Below are positions 49,747 to 64,000 of a DNA stretch of 64,000 bases, piece by piece. Numbering within the stretch: the first letter of the stretch is position 1; each line of letters begins with the position of its first letter. The stretch lies in NCBI GenBank assembly GCA_963702845.1, contig OY969763.1:1856001-1920000 (forward strand), given 5' to 3'. Under the pieces are notes generated by a model that worked only from the letters and a program-made list of their open reading frames with translations, was not told the DNA's origin and searched no databases. The position numbers were made by a program, and so were the translations under genes. This DNA is from an uncultured Verrucomicrobiae bacterium (lineage in GTDB: Bacteria; Verrucomicrobiota; Verrucomicrobiia; Limisphaerales; Palsa-1400).

Positions 49747-50361
49747 TCAGCGCAACGGGACCACTGTCCAGCCAAATGGTTGGCGATACGCTTCCGCCAT
49801 CACTTGGCCCATTATCACAGAATAGTGCGCGACGGTGTAATCTTCATCGTCATTATGTTCGCGGACCAGACGGGCCGCCCATTCGGCGTCAGGAACAACA
49901 ATCTTTGCATCCACGGAACTGAGTTCCAATCGTTCGCAAGGTATTCTCCATTCGCGTTCCCAAGTGAAGTCCGAGAACTCGAAACCTTCGCGTATCTCAT
50001 ATAGCATGTGCCGCCAGCGATGGCTTTTTGGCAGTGCGTCATACTCGGCGTTTGTCTGGTATATGACTGGACGGCCTCCTTGAGCGAACAGCCATTTCTT
50101 GGCCACCATGATACCGAATGGGGAATAACGGGAATAGTAGTCTTCATTGAGCAAGCCCTCGCCGAGACTGGAAAGGGGCGCCTCGGAGAAGCATACGCAC
50201 GGGAAACTTCCCTTAATGAGTCGGCCACTGCCCAAAAGGGTCTTTTCGTAGATAATCTTTTGAAGCCGCTGATATGCGGCTTCGTCTGAAACATCACTCG
50301 TAAAATGAATCAGATTCGGAGAAATATCCAACCTGCCCATAGGGCAAATAATCGTATCCAT
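49747..50361 (-). CDS. AbiGi-like / ART-fold-like hypothetical protein
   Basis: LIHFT, VCFSEAPL, YSPFGI..K..LFAQGGRPVIY, WEREWR. Confidence 0.55.
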   Translation of the reverse strand: MDTIICPMGRLDISPNLIHFTSDVSDEAAYQRLQKIIYEKTLLGSGRLIKGSFPCVCFSEAPLSSLGEGLLNEDYYSRYSPFGIMVAKKWLFAQGGRPVIYQTNAEYDALPKSHRWRHMLYEIREGFEFSDFTWEREWRIPCERLELSSVDAKIVVPDAEWAARLVREHNDDEDYTVAHYSVIMGQVMAEAYRQPFGWTVVPLR

Positions 50362-52660: not shown

Positions 52661-53098
52661 TTACAATGCCCGTTGAATGCGCTGCAAACAATTTAACGGG
52701 CGTTTTGCCAATGCACATTCCCAAATTCTAACAACCGTCCATCCTGCCGCGCGCAGCTTGCGCGTGACACGACGATCACGATTCTTGTTTCCAACGATCT
52801 TGCCGCGCCATAATGCCGCGTTTCGCTTGGGTTTTAGATTGCGACCACATTCATGGCCATGCCAAAAACAGCCGTCAACGAATACCGCCAGTTTTCCTCT
52901 TGGAAAAACGAAATCGGGTTTGCCGGGCAGGAGAAAATCACGGCGCCATCCATGCAATCGCGCGGAGCGTAAGAGCAAGAGCAGTTTCAATTCCGTAGAG
53001 GCATTTCGCTTGCTGCGAATCCGCGACATAAGCACCGAACGAGATAGTCCTCCAAATGTCGTTTTCGTATGTTTGCTACTACCGGGCCAGCGACTCAT
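52661..53098 (-). CDS. vsr: Very-short-patch repair endonuclease
   Basis: MSRIRSKRNASTE, GKPDFVF, FVDGCFWHGH, W.VVRIWEC. Confidence 0.92.
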   Translation of the reverse strand: MSRWPGSSKHTKTTFGGLSRSVLMSRIRSKRNASTELKLLLLLRSARLHGWRRDFLLPGKPDFVFPRGKLAVFVDGCFWHGHECGRNLKPKRNAALWRGKIVGNKNRDRRVTRKLRAAGWTVVRIWECALAKRPLNCLQRIQRAL

Positions 53099-54177
53099 GG
53101 CGCTTCTTCAACTCCTCTCGGATGCGCTTGCCAGCCACACGCGCGAACTTCGGTGGCACGGCGTTTCCAATCATATCGCATACCACTTCCATGTGATCCG
53201 TTTCAAACTTGTAGCCGCGTGGAAAAGTTTGAATCAGCGCCGCCTCACGCACCGAAATTGTCGTGCGACTTTTTTTGTTGGGATGGCCGAAGCGCCCCTT
53301 GCAAGCCGTAGTACCAGCCGCCAGTCATCGTGATGGGAGTTTGATTCCATGACATCCGACCATAAGTGTTTGTGAATCCTTCGTAGCCGCTACGATGACA
53401 CTCGGGGCGAATGGATTCCTCCAACCCCAGCCACGTCTTTCCAGGAATTGCGGCGTCGAGTCGCGCGGCAACTTGCGGTTGAAGGTCGCGGACAACGTGC
53501 CAATTGAATTTTCTTGGCCCGCCCTTCTTGCGTGCCTTACTCATCACAATCGGAATTGGTTGTTTCGCAACCACGTCTCGGAGCGTGAGCCATTTTTTTT
53601 GTTTTGAATTTGGCTGTGGATTCTTGGCGTGAGTGGTTTCAGGAAATGGAATGGCGAAACCGCGTCCAGCAAAAAGCACGAGCCGCCTGCGCGATTGCGG
53701 CACGCCATAATCTGCCATTTGAATGACTTGCCATCGAGGCCAATAACCCGCCGCGCGCAAACGCGCCAAGAACTTCTTGAAGATTCGCTTGCCCCTTTTC
53801 TGCAAACCCGGAACGTTCTCCATCATAACTACGGTGGGTTTGAGTTCTCTAATGAGCGTCGCCATTTGCAACACCAATTTGTTGCGTGGGTCTTTTCGTT
53901 TGTTTTTAACGGTGAGCGAACAAAATCCCTGACACGGGGCGCACCCGGCCAGCAGGGATATTTTTTTTCCGCCGCACAATTTTTGCAACTCGCTCGCGGT
54001 AACTTTGCAAATATCGCGTTCAATTAGATTTGTCTGCGGATGATTCTTGCGGTAGGACTTCGCAGCCGCTGCGTCGATCTCAACGGCAGCACGAACATCA
54101 AAGCCCGCTTTCTGCAGGCCTTCTGACAGGCCGCCACACCCGGCGAACAAATCAATTGCAATGAGCGGTTTCATCAA
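53079..54177 (-). CDS. dcm: DNA (cytosine-5)-methyltransferase; frameshift near 53315
   Basis: [25 protein letters not shown]; motifs IX/X ([20 protein letters not shown]) continue in a shifted frame. Confidence 0.9.
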
Positions 54178-56300
54178 GATTTTCCACCTGACAACTTTCT
54201 CTGCCTTTTTGCCTCGTTTAGGAATTCCTTATGTGCTTGCCCAGTCCGGAGCAAAAATGTTTTCCAATTTATGTGTGTGAGTGCCTGCGTGGACTTGTAG
54301 CCGTCAAATGCCGCCCGAGTGGCTCCTGTGAGTCCGATTTGATCGCAAATCAATGTGATGTGGAATTTTGGAAATTTGTCGGCAAAGTCTTTATTTCCTT
54401 CTTCTTTCAAGAAATCCCGCATTAAATCGTGGTAGCGCACAATTCTCTCCATTTCCTCATTGGCCAACTTGTGTTTTGGACGCTTAATTTCAATGATCTG
54501 AACAGTATCGTCCTGACTTGAAAGAACGAAATCAGCACGTTTAGTGGAATCGGAGAAATCATGCAACACAATATCCTTTTTCGTCCGGTCCTTGTAAAAT
54601 TTTACGAACTCTGTTCTCAATGATTCAAAAGACTGGTTGGCGGTAATTGGCGACCATGCTGGGTTAATTAACCAAGGGGCTTCCGTGAGCAGTTTTTGCA
54701 GTTCCGCTTCCTGGGTGGTTTTGTCGTCTTTGAGTTTTTCTATGGTTTCTATAACTCGCACGCGATCATCTACAATCCGACCAAACGAGGCCAATTCTGC
54801 GATGCGCGCGGTCTTCAATACTTCCGACACCACGGACATCGGTCTGTCTTTTGAGCCCGCAGCTTGCTTAAGTTTTCGATCCAAGGTTATGTGTGGCCCG
54901 AGCAGGAGGCTGAGTTGCACGAAACACTCGATTGTTTCCGGGTCTTCTAGTTCGTCTTTGCGCGCAGCTTTAGCTATTGTCTCCGCCATTTCCATGGTCT
55001 GCTCACGAATTTCTTTGTTGTCTTTACCAGGATATGCCGCTTCAACTTTTTGTTCGATTTTGGATTCTTCTTGGAATTTTTCCCACGCCGACACCCTCAT
55101 GGGTTCACGAGTAATTTTGCCGAGCAATTTCACCAGTGACTGCCCCCACTTCTCAAAGCTTTGCCCCAAATCGTGTGACCAAAGAATATCTTGACGGTCT
55201 GTGCGGATGAGATCTTCCGCCTCATCGAGCCAGGGGGTGTGCAACTCCCCGATCAGATAGGAACGCACATCGTGTTCTCCAGTAAATCCTGCCGTTAGGT
55301 CAAAAAGTTTTGTCTGTGCAGCAATTTTGCCGCGGCAATAGATACGAATACCGGCCATCAATTCATCTTTGTATGGCTTCGGCGCGTAACCGACCCATCC
55401 GGTGACAGGGTAAAAGCGGCCTTCATGTTCAAAGCCGGGAAGCAAATCGCCCAGGTCAATATTCGGAGGGCCGGTTACAGTGTAGTCGGTTGATTTAGAG
55501 GAGTCCTCTTTGGCTTTTGCTTCGCGTGAAAATGTTATTTTCGTGGCGCTGTTTGCTTCAATTTGAAACTCGCCGACCGAACACTCGTAACCTTCTTGGT
55601 TGGATTTTTTGTTTATATCCCGGAGCGCAATGCTCCATTTTGCCGACTGCAATCCGAACCGCTGTGCCATCTGACGCTCAAAGTCTACGATGGTAGGAAC
55701 GTGACGGTAATCGAAAATCGTCATCCGAATAATCGTTCCGGCCTTGGGACGATAAGTGCCATCGAGTGAGCCTATAGGCGGAAAATATGGTTCGTCTGTT
55801 TCACTCAGAATCGCACGACGCTCAAGGATAAGATGGCACGTCAAATAGCCCGTTTTTTCTACCCCTTTAGCGTCGGTGTATTTACATGCGTTGCCACCCG
55901 CCGTGATAACCTCAATCTTTTCGCATACACCAAAAGGAGCTAGTTTGCCGACGCCCTTTCGCCCCATCACCCGACGTTTGTAAATCTTGGATAAATCGCC
56001 GCGCTTGGGATCACTACGACGTTCTTTTCCGACTTTAAGATAAAATTCATTTACCTGCTCCGCAGTCATTCCAACGCCGTCATCTTCAACCTCAATGACA
56101 TAACCGCGATCCGTTATGACACCTTTGCTCTTCGTTGATAGCAATTCACCCATCGGCGCGCGCACAGTCACTTCAGTTGCGTCAGCGTCGTAGCTGTTTG
56201 CAATGATTTCAGCGATGACAGCCGAAACCCGGTCATAAAGTTTGACGCCCAGCTTGTCAACCGTAAGCCGGGAAATCGTCATTATGTATTTCTCATTCAT
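54174..56300 (-). CDS. GHKL/MORC-type ATPase with C-terminal PD-(D/E)XK-like nuclease domain
   Basis: [25 protein letters not shown]-terminal RADFVL...IIEIKRP. Confidence 0.82.
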
Positions 56301-56990
56301 GATGAACAATGGCCCGAATCTAATTTTTCATGCAAACGCATGTGGACATGCTGTGTTGAGTGTGGGCGGGAAATTTATCAGCGTCAATACTAGGGCGCTG
56401 GTCAGTCCGCGACTCCGGCCTTCAACCCTCCGGTGCTCGCGCCGCCAATGTCCTCGGCCTCTCCGATCAGGTGCCAATGGGTTTCTGGCATTTCGCAGCA
56501 TGCCTAATAGACCTCGATAGTGATCATCGAGAACGGGCCGTTTTGAGGTTGTCGCAACAAGCGGAAGTAGAGTATCCAGCTGGAAACTGTAGGTTGCAGC
56601 TGATTCTAAAAATTGAACCACTTTTTTCTTACCGCCACGGCGGCAAAAACCGTCTCAAGGAAACGAAACAGCTTGGCTTCAACGGCCACGTTTCCGTGTT
56701 GAGAAAAATCTTCGTTTGGAAAACTGTGGTTTTTGCTCCCAAGGCATTGAATGCGGTCCACATGAAATCTTCTTGCACCAGTCTAAATGCAATATCCCAC
56801 GGAGTGTGTTGCTGAGAACATTTCGCGCATGCGATCATCCTTTTTTGGAACTGCAGATCGACAAAGGATTCCGGCAAAAGTTCGGAGCGCTGCACGCATT
56901 ACATGAAAAGTGGGGGCCAGATTACGTAATGTAGCGGTTAAGCCTGGCGTCTGAGGAGGTCTCATTGATGCGAGTTTAGTGCACTTAAAT

Positions 56991-57479: not shown

Positions 57480-59068
57480 ATGAGCGCGGCGAACGAAGCT
57501 GAATGCGATGACTCAAGCGGCACCATAAATCCCTCATTTGGGGTCGGAAAGCTGGCGGAAAACCTATTTGAACAATGGACTTACCGAATGGGATGGATTC
57601 CTCGAAGGCAAGAGCCCGATTTTTTCGTTGATTACTTGGTAGAGCCGAGTTCAGGTAAAACATTGGTGGGATGGAGTTTTGGTGTCCAAGTGAAAGGTGT
57701 ATCCATTTCCAAGAACACCGGTATCCGAAAAGGTATGTCGCGAAAGGTAAACACGTCAGGCACTGGACGGAAAAGTGCCGGTATCCCGTTTTTCTCTTTT
57801 TAGTTGATGTAACGAGCAGTCGCGGCACGTGGCTGTTCGTCCAAAAGTACGTTAAGGAGAATATCAGCGAGCGAGCGCTTAAGACTCAACGGAGCTTCAC
57901 GCTCCATCTTCATCCCAAAAATAATTTGGATAACGTCACTGGGTTTATCTCGGCAGTCGAAGCAGCCGCTACATACGTTAACGATATGTATCCTGGTTCT
58001 CCTAAAGCAGCTGTAGAAAAAAGGCAGCGTGAACTGAAGGAACTCGACCCCAGATTATCGATCAAGGTAACAGCCACACAAGACGTTGAGACACTGCACG
58101 TATCCGCCGACCCACCGGTTCCGTTTAAAATGCGCATTCGTGATCCGTCCGCTCGGCTGGCGTTCAAACGAGCAATCGAAAGCGGGACTAAATGCACGTT
58201 GATGCTCGATGCATTGGAGTTTTCCGAGTCGCCATTTTTTGAAAAATACAACAAATCCAAGGGAAGTTTGTTGATGCAATTTGCGCAGAAAACGTCTGGT
58301 CATATCTGTCTTGGCTTCAAAACATCTGCGGGATCGCGAATTCTACAGGTAAACGGCGAATATAGCGCCGGAACAAAACGAGCAACATTCCGCGGCACCA
58401 CCCCGAATGCGCCGCTCGAAATCAAGTGCGGCATAGGGATACCTTGTCTCGATGCAAACAAGGATATTTCCATCGGATTATTCCAGCACTTGGAACGGTG
58501 GGAAGGTCAGCAGGTTCTGCTGCTGTCGCATTTTGATGAGATATTTGGAATATACGAGTCGTTGTTTTCCGGCGAGGGTGTCGAAATCGAGCATTACATT
58601 GCTGGTAATCGTTTTGCCCATGGGAATTTGCAAGGTATAGCAAATGAATCAAGCAAGGGGCTTCTCAAAACACTTCGATGGCTTTCACGCTGTCGCCTTG
58701 TTACAAAACGGTACCAAATTAACCCGAAACTGCCGAGATTGGATTCTATCACTGCGGTTCAACTGGAAGCCGTTGATGATCTCGCGGCCTTGATTTGTTC
58801 AGCAAAGCGCGTAATGCCATATCCACATTTCCATAAACGCGGACGGCCTTCTCGTGTCGCCGAACTGACGAGTCAGGGCCCGATGATTGTAAGGATCGAT
58901 ACCGAGGGTGCGAAATTCGACGTACTTGGGCATCACGTGATTGTCGGAAATATTCGATCCATTTTCACCGGTGTCACTATCACCGTGCTAGAAAATACGC
59001 GTTCCGGAAAACCCGTTCTGGACCTCCGCGGTTCAGCTTCGACGATGAGAATGCTGGAGAAGTTTTAG
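57480..59068 (+). CDS. DUF4365-like (PD-(D/E)XK) domain protein; frameshift near 57715
   Basis: EPDFFVDYLVE...GVQVKG (ORF 57456..57803) joins W...PVFLFLVDV...W in ORF 57671..59068. Confidence 0.65.
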
Positions 59069-59098
59069 CTGGAGTTGGAGTCATATATTCCGAATCGA

Positions 59099-59371
59099 AT
59101 GAGCACATCACACACGTTTGTTCTTGGCCAACGAGTTTCTCTTGAAGAGGACGAAACGTACGAATTCAAAAGTGTAACGTCAGGTCGGCCTGCTGACGCC
59201 ATAGCGAATACCGACGATGAATACGTTGTCGGTTTTTTGAATGGTCAAGGTGGAATAGTTTTGTGGGGAATTTCCGATGAAGGCTTGGTGATTGGTGTCT
59301 CGTTGCAACGCGCCGATCTCGAATATGCACATTTTAGAACGTTTGGAAGAGTTGGTGGCGAGTCTATTTGA
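59099..59371 (+). pseudogene. Truncated Schlafen/AlbA_2 domain
   Basis: EEDETYEFK...VVGFLNGQGGIVLWGISDEG.V.GV, then an abrupt end after about 90 aa. Confidence 0.65.
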
Positions 59372-59719
59372 AGAAAGGCAGCCCACAACTTCCTGATAGT
59401 TATTTTCCTTCGTTTAAAGGAGGTTGGCAGCACGCCAAATTCGGCCTGCGTGTGTAAAAATATTTGGCCCGATATGCTTGGGCCATATGAAAAACAATAA
59501 TCCAAAACCAAATAGCAAGGGTGAGAAGGGCTTGGGATACGGTGGACTGAAGTTATTGATCGATTTTTGGCGGATTTGATCACCAAACTGCGAATTGATC
59601 TGCTCGTGCAGGGGAATGAAATCCTGGGAAAGATTCGGGAAGTGAACGATTCGGTCGATATTATTGCGCGTGAAGTTGAGCGACAGGCGGAAAGGAGCAA
59701 GAAGTCTTAGTGAATTTCG

Positions 59720-60347
59720 ATGGTCCAGCCAATCGTTGTGAGTCTGTTCGACTATACCTGCAATATGGTGAAGCCGTGGGCGGAAGCTGGGTTCCTTTGC
59801 TACTGTGTGGATATAAAACATCCTGCTGGCGAGCATCGCGACGGCAACATTGTTCGGGTCGGCGCTGATGTGCGCGAGTGGCTGCCGCCATTCGCACCAA
59901 TAAAAATTCTATTCGCATTTCCTCCGTGCACGCACGTTGCCGCAAGCGGCGCGCGGTGGTTCAAAGACAAAGGTCTCGGTAGTCTCATTGATTCGCTCCA
60001 CATGTTTGACGCATCAGTGCGTTTGGCGAAGTGGACGAAAGCACCATACATAATCGAAAATCCGGTAAGCACGGTTTCAACCTACTGGCGCAAACCGAGA
60101 TCACACATTCAATCCGTGCGACTTCGGCGGCTATCTCACGCCTTCCAGTGATCCCTACACCAAGAAAACGTGTTTGTGGATCGGAAACGGGTTCGTCATT
60201 CCCAAAATGAAACGTGTGCGACCGATTGATGGAAGCAAGATGCATCGTTTGCCTCCGTCGGCTGGTCGCGCCGCGTTGCGCTCGGAGACTCCGCGTGGAT
60301 TTGCGAATGCTGTGTCCGGGGCGAACTCGAAATCACACCGGTCATAG
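59720..60347 (+). CDS. Phage/plasmid-type small cytosine-methyltransferase-like protein; frameshift near 60098
   Basis: SLFD, AFPPCT...SGARWF, IENPV, then in a shifted frame DPYTKKTCLW...RSETPRGFA. Confidence 0.72.
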
Positions 60348-60363: not shown

Positions 60364-60780
60364 TCAGCGTACGGTTTTCTCGGGTTCGGTGATCGTTCCC
60401 TTAGAGTTCCACCACTTTTCGACTTCCGCTTCGGACATCTGGGGCATTTTACCGATGAGTAGCCTCACTTTGTTACGCCGGAGGATAAAATGGCTGCAGC
60501 AGCCAGTGGTTAGCCAAACTGAAGGCCACAAGGACAAACCGTACTTTGGTTCCAAAGCCATTCGCCAAGCTAATCCCGTTTCCGGCATGAGATTCACTGA
60601 TATTATCTCACCACAGCCGCACGGGCAGAAGAATTTGAGGCTTTTTGCGCGTTTGTTCGGAATGACGATTACAAGCACTCCAGGTTTGATGAGTGATGAA
60701 GCCTGAGTTTGATCATGCGCCCTGACAACCTTGGAGTATTTAACGTCCCTATACGAAAATTTCACTTCGAGACCACTCAT
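60364..60780 (-). CDS. DUF6527-like Cys/His-rich protein
   Basis: FCPCGCG...LWPSVW...CCSHFI; ATGA overlap with the upstream kinase gene. Confidence 0.72.
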   Translation of the reverse strand: MSGLEVKFSYRDVKYSKVVRAHDQTQASSLIKPGVLVIVIPNKRAKSLKFFCPCGCGEIISVNLMPETGLAWRMALEPKYGLSLWPSVWLTTGCCSHFILRRNKVRLLIGKMPQMSEAEVEKWWNSKGTITEPEKTVR

Positions 60781-62318
60781 AGTTTCAGATTCTTAAGGAG
60801 GTCGCAGGCGAGAGAGTAACATAAGGCCCGGCGTTTGGCCATGTGCGGTTTGTCTTCCGCCAGATCTTGCGGTTGGCTAGCAAATCTCAACAGGTGGCAA
60901 ATAGTCAGCACTTCATACTCATATGTGGGGATGCCTTCGCCGCCTGCCAGCCTACGAATTTGATAAATGGCGTCTGTGCGACCATCTGTAACGGTAAAGT
61001 CGCGGGGAGGAAGCAAATGGCCATGATACATCCGGCGCAACGCAGTTTCCGAAAGCTGTTGGTCGGTTTTATCGGTTACCGTCAATGCAATACTCGTTTC
61101 AAGTTTCGCGGGATCACGGGCCAGCGATTCCCGAATTCCGGAATGAGAAAAATCTATTAGAATTGTGTCGATCGAGTTCCACCTAACAAAAACATTCCGG
61201 ACGTTCAGATCACCGTGTACACGACAAATGTAATAGTCGATTTTCGGTTGGTTCTCTAGCTGTTGCCACAATTGAGACGGGCTTGGAAGTGAGGGCGTCT
61301 TTTTTCGCGCGTCGGCAAAGCTACCAGAAAGTCGTGTGGGGTCAGGAAGCAGCGATTTCGCGAGCGCTTCTTTCGGGTCGAGCTTCATCGCTTCCTTCTG
61401 CTGATTAACGTAAAAATAGCCGAGGGATGCATGTATTAGATCAATTGCACGCCGCCACTTTCGCAACGCTCCTTCAAACAGGGATACCATCACAAGCTCA
61501 GGGTTTGAACTGGTGGCGAGATATTCGTCGAGACGTTGTGATCGGCCGACAAACGCAGAGACGATAAGTGCACGTGTGGCACCTTTGATGAATTTAGCTT
61601 CGAGAATAGGCGCACGAAACGGAAATGGAACGTAATCGCGGACAAAATCTTGGTATGTATCAAATTCGGTTTGCAAATCGAGAAGCCGCCCCGCTTTCGC
61701 TACGAATGGTTGACATGGCTGGCTGTCCCGGCTTGCTTCGATTTTCCACACGTTGCAGTCTGTTGAACGTCCTCCTTGCTGTGACGTGAGATTCACGTGG
61801 CTGAAATCGTTAAATGCTCGCTTAAGCAAGATCATGTCAGTCTCATAATCCTCGATGCGAGTTGCCTTGTAATCGTCCTTACTGTGGCCGGGAAGCAAGA
61901 GTGTTGCTTTAGCGACAGCAGGTTGTTTTGCCAAGTGAGAGGTGATCACTCGTGCGAAATCGTTGGGCTCGTTTCTCCTCGGCTCACTGTTGATCACAAC
62001 GATCTGCGCTGATACTTTCTGCTTAACCGCGCTTTGCAGTTTGTACGCAGCAGTTAAATCAGAAGCTGCTACGCCAAGTAACACGCCGTAATCCTGCAGG
62101 TGCGTCGTCAATAACCGTAGCATCCTGCCGTGAGCCTTTTGGGCATCCTCACCATCGGCAGATACCAGCACCGCCAACAAGTCCTCGGCTCCAGCATTGA
62201 ATTCGCTTATATCGCTGGCTGCTTCAACCGAAAGACTCAGCATGGTAGCAATTTCGCGCAAGTTCTCAGGAACCTGACGACCGACCCATACAACTCGGCT
62301 CCGTTGCCCGGCAGTCAA
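60777..62318 (-). CDS. Phosphotransferase (APH/protein-kinase-like fold, TCAD9-like) with uncharacterised N-terminal domain
   Basis: GGRS..V, FVAK, HGDLNVRN catalytic loop, LIDF, D.AKLE; 4-bp overlaps at both ends. Confidence 0.72.
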   Translation of the reverse strand: MTAGQRSRVVWVGRQVPENLREIATMLSLSVEAASDISEFNAGAEDLLAVLVSADGEDAQKAHGRMLRLLTTHLQDYGVLLGVAASDLTAAYKLQSAVKQKVSAQIVVINSEPRRNEPNDFARVITSHLAKQPAVAKATLLLPGHSKDDYKATRIEDYETDMILLKRAFNDFSHVNLTSQQGGRSTDCNVWKIEASRDSQPCQPFVAKAGRLLDLQTEFDTYQDFVRDYVPFPFRAPILEAKFIKGATRALIVSAFVGRSQRLDEYLATSSNPELVMVSLFEGALRKWRRAIDLIHASLGYFYVNQQKEAMKLDPKEALAKSLLPDPTRLSGSFADARKKTPSLPSPSQLWQQLENQPKIDYYICRVHGDLNVRNVFVRWNSIDTILIDFSHSGIRESLARDPAKLETSIALTVTDKTDQQLSETALRRMYHGHLLPPRDFTVTDGRTDAIYQIRRLAGGEGIPTYEYEVLTICHLLRFASQPQDLAEDKPHMAKRRALCYSLACDLLKNLKL

Positions 62319-63664
62319 CTTGGCCTCCCAGGCATAGGTAAAGTGTCTCCCCTCGCGAACACCCCATTAAGCGAACAAACCACGCAATGCGGCAACGGTT
62401 CGGATGATGCCGCACGAACTACGCCGCGATTGAACAGAACCAACTGATGTCGCACCGGAAGGGGCAAACCCGCGACAGCGGAGAGCATCATAGTTACACC
62501 AAGTGAAGCAACTGTGCCGTTTAACGAGATTACAGCTGGTTGAGGTTCCACCGCCCCAACTATATACGGGTCACGCACCCTTGCTTCGTCTGTCAGAAGG
62601 TCCTGGCGCACTTCTTCCGGGTCGAGAAGATTATGGCATAGCAGACAAGGAAGACCTGGAGCGAGCATTTGAATTCTCCCGGTCACGCTTTGGACTTTAC
62701 CAGCACGCACCTGAATTCGAACGCCGAGGTCAACAGTGGGGATGACATATTGATAGGCGAGTTGGTTTATGACTGCACGGCTGCCGTGGGAGTCGGTGCA
62801 ACAAAAAATAAAATCGCACGAGAGCAGTTTTTGGGCATCGCCGGATACCATTACATTTCCGGCATGTCCAGCAGGGTCGGATTCGGGATTAATGTGACGA
62901 ATTAAATTCGCCGCCACGTCCACCTTTGGTCTGTCAATATCGCTTCGCGTCGCACCGACAACACGATTCAGATTCGTTTCCTCAACGCGATCCGGATCGA
63001 GCAACACAAAGTCTTTCACGCCCAAATGGGCGAGTTGTTCTGCAACGATCGAGCCCAAGCCACCAAGTCCAACGATACCGACACACAATTCAGCAAGCGC
63101 TGCTTGCCCTTCAACTCCAAACGCTCGTACGCTCCTATCAAAGCGATGTGGGACCTTTGGGGTCGAACTGTTGCCGCGATTATGAAACGTGACATCTCGT
63201 CCAACCTCAGTGACAGGGGACGCATTGGTCGGAACAGCATTCGGCGCATTCCAAATTCGAGCGTTACAATCACGTGCCGTGAGCAAGAGGGCTCCTTGGG
63301 GAGCTCCGTTTGTCCGTGAAAAGAGAGTCGGCATTAAAATCCGTTCACCTTCATCATCCACGATCGAAAATTGTGCCTTGTCAGCGAAAGGGTGTGTATG
63401 GGTTAAGACCAGCGAGAACCCATCTTTGCGAGCTTTTTTCAGAATGGGCATTATGAACGACGGGTCGATCACGGCACGGAGATTGTCTTGAGCTTGGTAG
63501 GACTCGGAGGGCACAACGAAATGCTCGCGAACTAAAAGCCGTACGCGCTCACCTTCACCAGCGTGGCCCGCAATGAGAAGAGCAGCGGCTTCCTTTGGTG
63601 CTGATGAAAATAGTGCTTTTCGTAGGTGAGGCAGCCCATCGTCTCCGAATACAATGCCTTTCAT
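62315..63664 (-). CDS. JAB/JAMM peptidase fused to ThiF/E1-like adenylating enzyme
   Basis: N-terminal E...HTHPF....FS..DD; C-terminal GLGGLGS, D.D.VEETNLNR, CTD, PCLLC and CVVC. Confidence 0.88.
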   Translation of the reverse strand: MKGIVFGDDGLPHLRKALFSSAPKEAAALLIAGHAGEGERVRLLVREHFVVPSESYQAQDNLRAVIDPSFIMPILKKARKDGFSLVLTHTHPFADKAQFSIVDDEGERILMPTLFSRTNGAPQGALLLTARDCNARIWNAPNAVPTNASPVTEVGRDVTFHNRGNSSTPKVPHRFDRSVRAFGVEGQAALAELCVGIVGLGGLGSIVAEQLAHLGVKDFVLLDPDRVEETNLNRVVGATRSDIDRPKVDVAANLIRHINPESDPAGHAGNVMVSGDAQKLLSCDFIFCCTDSHGSRAVINQLAYQYVIPTVDLGVRIQVRAGKVQSVTGRIQMLAPGLPCLLCHNLLDPEEVRQDLLTDEARVRDPYIVGAVEPQPAVISLNGTVASLGVTMMLSAVAGLPLPVRHQLVLFNRGVVRAASSEPLPHCVVCSLNGVFARGDTLPMPGRPS

Positions 63665-64000
63665 CGCTTTTCCTCGAACCGGCGACGTATCATGGAAACA
63701 TAGTTAACCAAGCTGTCCCGGTTAGGGTTCCAGGCGGCTGGATGCCACGAAAACCAGAGTAAATTAGGTGGCACGCCTGGAGGCTGGTTTTGACCTGTGC
63801 TGACCGGCGGCCCTCCGGAAGCCAATTTCAATCCCGGATCAGTCCAAAACGTGTCAGGTCGGGCGACGGGATATCCGACTGGCACTAGGAAATAAACATT
63901 AGTGGTGGCGGGGGTCCATCCTTCCGGCAGCACGAAATCGTAAAGCTTTATCAAGGTGGTGCCGTTCGAAATTTGCGCTTGCTCCAGCCTAGAAAACCGC
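63661..64000 (-). CDS. Prokaryotic E2/UBC-like protein (family E type), 5' end beyond the window
   Basis: LPEGW, VPVGYP.ARPD.FW, WFSWH, WNPNRDSL; the frame stays open to base 64000; ATGA overlap with JAB-E1. Confidence 0.75.
   Translation of the reverse strand, partial: RFSRLEQAQISNGTTLIKLYDFVLPEGWTPATTNVYFLVPVGYPVARPDTFWTDPGLKLASGGPPVSTGQNQPPGVPPNLLWFSWHPAAWNPNRDSLVNYVSMIRRRFEEKR

Follow-up and report, generated by a model that had tools for sequence, protein, structure and literature searches.

A kinase gene inside a five-gene Type I Bub operon of a Verrucomicrobiae bacterium

What would a kinase do inside a bacterial ubiquitination-like (Bub) operon? The question is raised by one end of a 64,000-nucleotide stretch of DNA (the window), where a sequence-only reading had recognized E2, JAB-E1 and DUF6527-like genes with an embedded phosphotransferase gene. 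The enzymology of Bub systems has been worked out, their targets and biological role were named as future work, and no Bub operon protected E. coli against phage (PMC11601596).

Composition of the operon

We found that the four minus-strand reading frames are chained by 4-bp start/stop overlaps (63661-63664, 62315-62318 and 60777-60780), as first described, and that the ubiquitin-like (Ubl) gene expected just past base 64000 is present 66 bp beyond the window end. Therefore, judged by its sequence, the locus represents a Type I Bub operon of five genes: Ubl, E2, JAB-E1, kinase and BubE (Table 1). Restriction genes and other island genes form a mosaic around it. A promoter scan returned 0 sigma-70-like sites (shuffled mean 5.0), and terminators occurred at chance frequency.

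Table 1. Genes and domains of the kinase-bearing Bub operon
Feature	Position in window	Strand	Evidence
bubA, single-domain Ubl, 90 aa	window-equivalent 64066-64338 (L001:8067-8339), wholly outside window, upstream of bubB	-	Multi_ubiq 36.3 bits
bubB, stand-alone Cys-less E2, 130 aa	63661..64000, start 53 bp past window (L001:7662-8054)	-	Prok-E2_E; Citrobacter BubB match; motif alignment
bubCD, JAB peptidase-E1 fusion, 449 aa	62315..63664	-	ThiF 126.8 bits; invariant columns; Citrobacter BubCD alignment
Kinase gene, 513 aa, pseudo-receiver and APH/choline-kinase-fold domain	60777..62318	-	TCAD9; structure model; fold matches; conservation
Kinase N-terminal domain, about residues 1-131, receiver (CheY-like) fold without acidic pocket	61926..62318	-	Structure model; fold match
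bubE, DUF6527 serine peptidase, 138 aa	60364..60780	-	DUF6527 60.9 bits (cut-off 23.6)

Profile matches and residues agree with the published Bub proteins, in keeping with the Bub-type layout first proposed, and none of the catalytic residues published for Bub is missing (E1 Tyr367; E2 Ser102, His104 and Asp67; BubE Ser87 and His97). The Ubl C-terminus, PPATMG-RYV, has a mature end at Gly87 followed by a 3-residue tail, and the terminal Gly is invariant in 29/29 Ubls of kinase operons. The E2 scores about 44.1-44.4 bits against Prok-E2_E (cut-off 25) and matches Citrobacter BubB (E 5.9e-6); the absence of Cys and the Ser in WFSWH, noticed earlier in its visible part, hold for the entire protein, where the Ser-His-Asp residues are in place. 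Likewise, the E1 has no Cys between CLLC (340-343) and the PQP motif, as had been claimed for the loop after CLLC; this crossover loop carries DPY367, and Arg234 is also present. The loop Tyr occurs in 33/33 kinase-operon E1s and in 13/13 other E1s. The JAB site of bubCD is intact (Glu25, His89, His91 and Asp103, all invariant columns), and the JAB-E1 family aligns with Citrobacter BubCD (E 1.5e-62). Cys52/54/56/94, Ser87 and His97 of BubE are spaced as C57/C59/C61/C99, S92 and H102 in Citrobacter. Among the profiles proposed for checking, ThiF was matched, Prok-E2_E, DUF6527 and TCAD9 scored above their cut-offs, and APH and Prok-JAB fell below (the latter 20.1 bits on the N-terminal 157 aa of the JAB-E1 protein, cut-off 25). 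The earlier statement that Bub operons use oxyester (hydroxyl) intermediates instead of thioesters is borne out by PMC11601596.

The closest known system is BubAB-BubCD-BubE of Citrobacter sp. RHBSTW-00271, a Type I Bub operon (6E.1 / DUF6527) (PMC11601596). Both contain a Ubl, a Cys-less E2 (Ser-x-His, Asp), a JAB-E1 with a crossover-loop Tyr and a DUF6527 Ser-His peptidase, with the same gene order in an island and plasmid setting. Unlike the Citrobacter system, the operon here has an additional 513-aa kinase between bubCD and bubE, a single-domain Ubl ending in PPAT(F/M)G, and separate Ubl and E2 genes instead of the BubAB fusion. The text of PMC11601596 describes the fusion for Type I and its Table S1 lists 31 split operons under this type, so the split does not disqualify the operon from Type I; the same 31 rows ruled it out as a novelty. 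Compared to sampled kinase-less operons, the E1 crossover loop of kinase operons is about 10 residues shorter, and the E2 motif reads WFSWH rather than WQRWSRH.

The layout was absent from PADLOC 2023 and NCBIfam 2026 (0 PADLOC families for the kinase, Ubl, E2 and BubE; only generic E1 matches), and a literature search found no description of a kinase-bearing Bub subtype. The operon is thus apparently an undescribed subtype of the known Bub kind, and the kinase, as first supposed, an extra component. A kinase gene, CapK, is likewise associated with Bub operons, together with CapS; encoded upstream of the operon, CapK is an HTH-STAS-GHKL anti-sigma-type kinase whose phosphorylation target is a repressor (PMC13373217). 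In contrast, the kinase here has a protein-kinase-like (APH) fold, lies inside the operon and has no STAS partner, and its identity with CapK was ruled out by the HTH-STAS-GHKL type of the latter. No HTH-STAS-GHKL kinase with a STAS-wHTH repressor was found upstream of the window operon.

The kinase and its receiver-like domain

Two observations support the TTG start of the kinase: Arg6 is conserved in 93% of 132 relatives, and the -3 offset of the start recurs in 18/28 operons examined. Its description as a 513-aa phosphotransferase embedded between E1 and DUF6527 is confirmed by TCAD9 (49.4 bits, cut-off 40) and by an APH/choline-kinase fold in the structure model (pLDDT 91.5). The catalytic residues are Lys208, Glu218, His368, Asp370, Asn375 and Asp389. 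K208, H368, N375 and D389 are invariant in an alignment with a mean column identity of 23%. In the 132 sequences they stand at 100%, with D370 (99%), E218 (97%) and G183 (92%) nearly as high. The protein has the features of an active kinase, including a Gly-rich loop, beta-3 Lys, alpha-C Glu, HxDxxxxN, Mg-binding Asp and bilobal fold; the conserved catalytic residues among the 132 sequences rule out a pseudokinase. A C-terminally activated, Ubl-like substrate was also ruled out, as only 5/132 sequences have a C-terminal Gly. Small-molecule kinases rank highest in the fold comparison (choline kinase/LicA, Z 15.8; APH, Z 15.1-15.7), which also retrieved LxmKY, the dehydratase complex for lexapeptide (Z 14.6, rmsd 4.8, 289 aligned). 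There is no close solved structure, the closest PDB sequence match scoring 27 bits. The family comprises 489 clusters at 50% identity (E up to 1e-30), and the gene neighbourhoods described below cover about 30 loci. As members of the subtype, 33 weak TCAD9/APH matches (at most 106 bits) were ruled out, with 0/33 beside Bub genes.

We found a receiver fold in the N-terminal domain (model pLDDT 91.9). In a VIA-align search, its top match was TadZ (Z 11.5, rmsd 2.9, 119 aligned), with receiver domains making up almost all of the 50 matches listed; Foldseek gave no match at E 0.001, and the ESM Atlas gave OKR_DC_1_N at 0.86, a lead only. By consensus, a receiver carries an acidic pair after strand 1, an Asp ending strand 3 and a Lys after strand 5. 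This phosphorylatable signature was not found; at pocket positions taken from the secondary structure of predicted models, Asp occurs in at most 2% (positions 11-13) and at most 5% (positions 52-54) of 132 sequences, so that the acidic pocket is absent.

The kinase shares a homologous kinase domain, HGDLxxxN and DF motifs and an N-terminal receiver fold with TCAD9 (PF19974)/APH-like conflict kinases, active members of which are counted among conflict-system effectors (PMC7159879), and with two distant kin, L120 and L121 (hhalign 98%, kinase domain only aligned). The N-terminal receiver of each of these kin looks canonical, that of L121 matching Response_reg at E 5e-6 with 27 bits, which is below the cut-off (30.2); an HATPase_c (histidine-kinase-like) gene precedes L121. 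Unlike these receiver-TCAD9 proteins, the Bub kinase has lost the acidic pocket and is tied to a Ubl operon, and among its neighbours we saw neither a histidine kinase nor a MoxR-vWA ternary system. Its receiver did not align by sequence with those of L120 and L121; consequently, descent from a receiver-kinase is argued from the fold.

Linkage of the kinase to Bub genes

All 30 distinct full-length relatives of the kinase elsewhere adjoin Bub genes, which answers the earlier doubt that the two might never be linked in other genomes. The kinase directly follows JAB-E1 in 28/29 scorable relatives, and linkage holds down to 24% identity, across several phyla and plasmids, with the same gene order in Acidobacteriota, Planctomycetota, Alphaproteobacteria and Deinococcus. 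In the window operon, it overlaps both bubCD and bubE. The one unlinked kinase is a truncated fragment without the HGD motif (L045/L046). The E1s of kinase operons all fall on the same side of a branch with 100/100 support (1 change, compared to a shuffled mean of 12.3) and have a long stem, and pair identities of E1 and kinase are correlated (Spearman 0.70; 0/999 permutations as high). These comparisons show that the kinase is inherited together with the Bub genes as one unit.

The arrangement varies at a few loci. At G078, the kinase gene has been relocated to a position after BubE, coupled there with a second Ubl gene of its own; L034 keeps the kinase and has no BubE behind it; in Roseomonas, BubE directly follows a related E1, with no kinase in an IS-truncated operon. 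In Table S1 of PMC11601596, the numbering of the Bradyrhizobium tropiciagri row implies a gene between E1 and DUF6527. Restriction genes, CBASS, a Pycsar effector and CapH/CapP-like genes lie near several kinase-Bub loci. Cultured hosts from soil and root nodules (Mesorhizobium, Rhizobium, Bradyrhizobium and Deinococcus) have it on plasmids; cultured carriers include Deinococcus NZ_CP140099.1 and Mesorhizobium NZ_AP023251.1. Viral contigs yielded 86 pattern matches, of which 0 were confirmed as relatives of the kinase, and an E1 search of them gave 16 loci (best 37% identity). We found no long fused kinase forms (941-2685 aa) at E 1e-15 among 8000 candidates, which is weak evidence, and 241 genomes of the G005 phylum yielded nothing at E 1e-20; in 251-genome samples around G002 and G001, the centre genome was the only strong match.

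Predicted contact between kinase and Ubl

The predicted kinase-Ubl complex scored 0.41 (best of 3 controls, 0.00), a weak pass of a mark reached by 116/157 solved complexes and 2/215 mismatches; of those that reached it, just 18 solved complexes and both mismatches scored 0.60 or lower. At least 95% of contacts are common to the runs, and the partner pLDDT is at least 83. The pass gives no interface and does not distinguish an allosteric site from the active site. Likeness to solved kinase-ubiquitin pairs, such as that of PINK1, could underlie the weak score. Thr35 is the sole Ser/Thr kept in 29/29 kinase-operon Ubls, and the position is also Ser/Thr in 10/11 kinase-less Ubls; thus, the Ubl offers no visible acceptor peculiar to the subtype. 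On the kinase, no conserved acceptor lysine stands out besides the catalytic K208; at position 214, 62/132 sequences have Lys.

Discussion

We tentatively interpret the kinase as the dedicated, Ubl-gated output of a five-gene Type I Bub subtype, an interpretation that falls a little short of an even chance. By steps established for the family, with matching residues here, JAB (or BubE) would trim the Ubl to Gly87, and BubE would later take it off again; in between, the E1 would adenylate the Ubl and hand it over, via Tyr367 and then E2 Ser102 oxyesters, to target lysines. The kinase's ancestor would have been a receiver-kinase switched by a histidine kinase, and the Ubl, bound or E2-conjugated, would have replaced Asp phosphorylation as its switch. 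Until reset by BubE, the active kinase would phosphorylate a host protein or a small molecule as part of a response to phage or stress. So read, the operon resembles Type II CBASS (Cap2/Cap3) in applying E1/E2 chemistry to a same-operon signalling enzyme, reversed by a peptidase. However, CBASS conjugates its own signalling enzyme to targets (PMC11601596), whereas the Bub operon relies on oxyesters and on a Ubl that is separate from the kinase, in which a C-terminal Gly is not conserved.

For the Ubl-gated kinase we counted the linkage, the E1 branch, the invariant residues, the receiver fold without Asp, L120/L121, G078, the complex score and PMC7159879; against it, we counted the weak complex pass, the kinase-less Roseomonas operon, L034 without BubE, the lack of an acceptor lysine, the receiver non-alignment and the no-protection result of PMC11601596.

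Alternatively, the kinase could act upstream, turning conjugation on or off by phosphorylating the tagging machinery (the Ubl, or E1 Tyr367, E2 Ser102 or BubE Ser87), which we regard as a serious though unlikely explanation. Ubiquitin itself is phosphorylated by PINK1. The hydroxyl nucleophiles of Bub chemistry are phosphorylatable, and the weak kinase-Ubl pass equally fits an enzyme-substrate pair; APH-fold enzymes can act on peptides, as the LxmKY match illustrates, although the best fold matches are small-molecule kinases and the Ubl shows no acceptor specific to the subtype. Upstream of the window operon we saw no CapH/CapP, CapW or CapK/CapS gene, so its control could be post-translational, but CapH/CapP-like genes do adjoin several kinase operons (L004, L047, L064 and L115).

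It is rather improbable that the kinase shares the promoter as a co-regulated passenger, acting on small molecules in defence or detoxification independently of the Ubl cycle. Such a passenger would agree with the APH/choline-kinase fold, the frequent clustering of defence genes, the loss of the kinase in Roseomonas and a core that works without it (in parts 1-2 of the published table, a gene lies between E1 and DUF6527 in just 2/139 Type I rows). However, it predicts solo kinases, and 0/30 full-length members are solo; at 20-60% identity, the gene keeps its place within the operon, where it overlaps or abuts the adjacent genes, the E1 clade has a long stem, and the weak Ubl-binding prediction also argues against it. 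Chance insertion of an unrelated kinase gene into a defence island, for all the mosaic neighbourhood, is highly improbable because 30/30 relatives adjoin Bub genes, and it is refuted by the recurrence of the order from Acidobacteriota to Deinococcus.

If the Ubl-gated reading holds, the operon could also contain a two-component-type receiver-kinase rewired to switching by a Ubl tag in place of a histidine kinase. It would then hold the first dedicated Bub target and output, in an oxyester-based ubiquitin-kinase circuit, with possible feedback phosphorylation of the Ubl or the Ser/Tyr nucleophiles; we consider this broader claim doubtful. Described Bub operons are without an obvious output gene, and the kinase subtype supplies a candidate within the operon. 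The kinase may therefore be the missing output of the Bub tagging system, and a catalytic-dead control (Asp370), together with cultured plasmid carriers, makes the role of the Ubl tag directly testable.

Operon core

The four genes and three 4-bp overlaps described from the sequence alone are present, and the Ubl gene predicted just past the window's end was found there (90 aa, Multi_ubiq 36.3 bits), beside an E2 gene whose first 53 bp also lie outside the window. In genome coordinates the window spans G000:C1:1856001-1920000. The Ubl and E2 ORFs share one frame, with two stop codons between them, and for the Ubl, E2, kinase and BubE profiles the window operon is the sole match in its own genome. 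We considered the split Ubl and E2 as a novelty and rejected it, because 31 rows in the available part of Table S1 of PMC11601596 already show the same arrangement.

Type I Bub, as PMC11601596 defines it in the portion available, combines a Ubl, an E2 that lacks Cys and has Ser/His/Asp, a fused JAB-E1 with Tyr in the crossover loop, and a DUF6527 peptidase of Ser-His type. Each defining residue has a counterpart here, in E1 by alignment (Glu25/His89/His91/Asp103, Arg234, Tyr367), in BubE (Cys52/54/56/94, Ser87, His97) and in E2 by motif alignment (Asp67/Ser102/His104; the HMMER alignment to BubB is off by two at the motif, and the Ser-x-His match is a manual reading). The Bub-type assignment thus holds, and judged by sequence the operon core is the already known Type I Bub.

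A Bub subtype with a constant kinase component

Kinase relatives numbered 57 in one sequence search and 489 clusters (E up to 1e-30) in another, both returning sequences without gene context. Context was taken from 157 pooled loci, 94 with a kinase-profile match and 46 with a full-length one; subtracting 3 own-genome loci and 13 re-fetches or near-copies left 30. We found that Bub genes adjoin the kinase in all 30 distinct full-length loci, so the linkage seen in the window recurs elsewhere. The kinase directly follows JAB-E1 in 28 of the 29 loci with upstream DNA (one of the 30 has none), and in the remaining one, from genome G078, it follows BubE and a second Ubl. BubE comes after the kinase in 26 of 30; two loci end at contig ends and two have no BubE there (L034, G078). 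The partial matches include one truncated fragment (L045/L046) without a nearby Bub gene and a frameshifted kinase with BubE and without E1 (L157), and none of 33 weak profile matches adjoins Bub genes. Among the named carriers are Candidatus Sulfotelmatobacter, Pirellulales, Tepidisphaerales, Mesorhizobium, Rhizobium, Bradyrhizobium and Deinococcus; where measured, their kinases are 24–53% identical to the window's. RefSeq labels the gene 'phosphotransferase'. This subtype of Type I Bub is real and conserved, and the kinase is one of its constant components.

In part of the subtype (for example loci L005, L047, L061 and L115), BubE extends further at its C terminus, and these extensions have in common an 'EIPWD' type motif that the window's BubE lacks.

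The sequence-only reading had taken the kinase as an extra component, and the available parts of the Bub literature searched contained no layout with this kinase. 'Kinase', 'TCAD' and 'phosphotransferase' occur nowhere in both supplements of PMC11601596; by eye, gene numbers lie between E1 and DUF6527 in 2 of the 139 Type I rows available in its Table S1 (parts 1-2). In the parts available, PMC11601603 does not contain 'kinase', the 6e operons of PMC1779556 are listed without one, and PMC7159879 and 10.64898/2026.09.18.752743 make no connection between TCAD9/APH kinases and Bub operons. The Bub-linked kinase in the accessible portion of PMC13373217 is a different one, of GHKL type and lying upstream. 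A description of the subtype was not found in the literature searched.

Distribution and descent

A plasmid search with E1 only returned 97 records; among the 45 listed, 13 stood apart at 40–44% identity (281–321 bits), the next reaching at most 35% and 189 bits. The kinase is present in 12 of the 13, seven being near-identical Bradyrhizobium plasmids of which one was opened. In the 13th, Roseomonas NZ_CP025190.1, BubE directly follows E1 in an operon cut by IS21, and therefore the kinase can be lost; this E1, fetched later, is absent from the E1 tree. Of 351 genomes from G004's order, 32 have DUF6527 and 3, counting the centre genome, have a strong kinase match, which in all three lies in a Bub operon. 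Within the source phylum, 2 of 301 genomes matched, the source genome included. From the plasmid search and these counts we conclude that the subtype is mobile and has a rare and patchy distribution.

On the E1 tree (47 rows, one short row omitted, two duplicate pairs retained), 33 kinase-linked E1s form one side of a 100/100 branch, and kinase presence requires 1 change versus 12.3 when shuffled. Since these E1s were mostly gathered via the kinase, the tree shows only that no kinase accompanies the other sampled E1s, and is no proof that every branch member keeps it. Across 28 operons, E1 and kinase identities (means 57% and 31%) correlate at 0.70, with 0 of 999 permutations as high, which can be explained by common descent alone.

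Kinase structure and possible role

The AlphaFold2 model (pLDDT 91.5) has two parts. For residues 144–513 the structural matches include choline kinase/LicA (Z 15.8), APH enzymes (Z 15.1–15.7) and LxmKY (Z 14.6), at 8–14% identity throughout. Every catalytic motif is conserved across 132 sequences (23% mean column identity), and the kinase is therefore very probably active. Modelled alone, the N-terminal domain matches receiver domains (Z 11.5), and acidic residues are absent at the ends of its strands 1 and 3. The kinase domain is shared by two distant relatives (L120, L121), which start with normal-looking receivers; one of them lies behind an HATPase_c gene. We infer loss of the histidine-kinase input and retention of the switch domain.

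In one complex prediction, the kinase with mature Ubl scored 0.41, versus 0.00 for the best of three controls, with contacts agreeing at least 95% and partner pLDDT at least 83; the output gave a score and no interface. The score mark was reached by 116 of 157 solved complexes and 2 of 215 mismatches, and scores up to 0.60 within it comprise 18 solved complexes and both mismatches, so 0.41 is weak support. The alignment of kinase-operon with other Ubls contained no subtype-specific Ser/Thr.

In our judgement the kinase may, tentatively, be an output kinase gated by Ubl, every step past conjugation being a proposal. We favour this because the kinase has a receiver architecture, is folded like small-molecule kinases and in G078 is coupled to a second Ubl, and because of the lack of subtype-specific Ubl Ser/Thr and the weak complex score. 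That the kinase instead regulates conjugation we judge somewhat less likely. That it is a co-regulated passenger we consider less likely still.

Genomic setting

Neighbours at related loci include CBASS, Pycsar effector and restriction genes, integrases and CapH/CapP-like pairs. These, with the window's restriction genes, suggest a defence or stress role for the operon. In the available parts of PMC11601596 and PMC13373217, however, no Bub operon is reported to protect against phage.

Features near the window operon and at fetched loci (L-numbers)
Feature	Location	Remarks
AbiGi-like ORF	window 49747-50361	
Vsr, C5 methyltransferase, GHKL-type restriction endonuclease	window 52661-56309	4-8 kb from operon; methyltransferase 310 aa long, possibly cut short by a frameshift
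DUF4365-like ORF	window 57671-59068	
Schlafen AlbA_2 fragment	window 59075-59371	short
Similar segment flanking both Ubl operons	window 59414-60151; L159:5191-5742	133-143-aa ORF, no Pfam match, both copies look truncated; we take it to resemble phage DNA cytosine methylases
Second Ubl-type operon, own genome	L159:5990-9088 (G000:C1 about 1952000-1955100)	34 kb past window; CapP-like M78 peptidase + HTH, 91-aa ORF (possibly Ubl-like, no Pfam match, no terminal Gly), Prok-E2_E, JAB-ThiF fusion (388 aa, looks cut short); no DUF6527
SMODS-AGS_C and SLATT_6 genes	L159:9991-11873	after second operon
Rearranged operon, G078	L115:6570-11100	Ubl-E2-JAB/E1-BubE-second Ubl-kinase; second Ubl has Gly at end, its gene overlaps kinase start
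Kinase-type and kinase-less Type I Bub operons side by side	L021:3579-9870; L034:6044-14029	L034 kinase operon without BubE of its own
350-aa ORF behind BubE	L003:9926-10978	internal Ubl-like segment (32% to Ubl), no Pfam match
Isochorismatase-TCAD9 kinase fusion	L118:6811-8589	genome from G002's phylum, unlinked to Bub genes; L119 has a match of similar size
Pycsar effector gene near kinase-type operon	L018:4192-4770	
CBASS pair near kinase-type operon	L155:11910-13518	

The core is known; the kinase subtype offers a way to test what Bub tagging is for.
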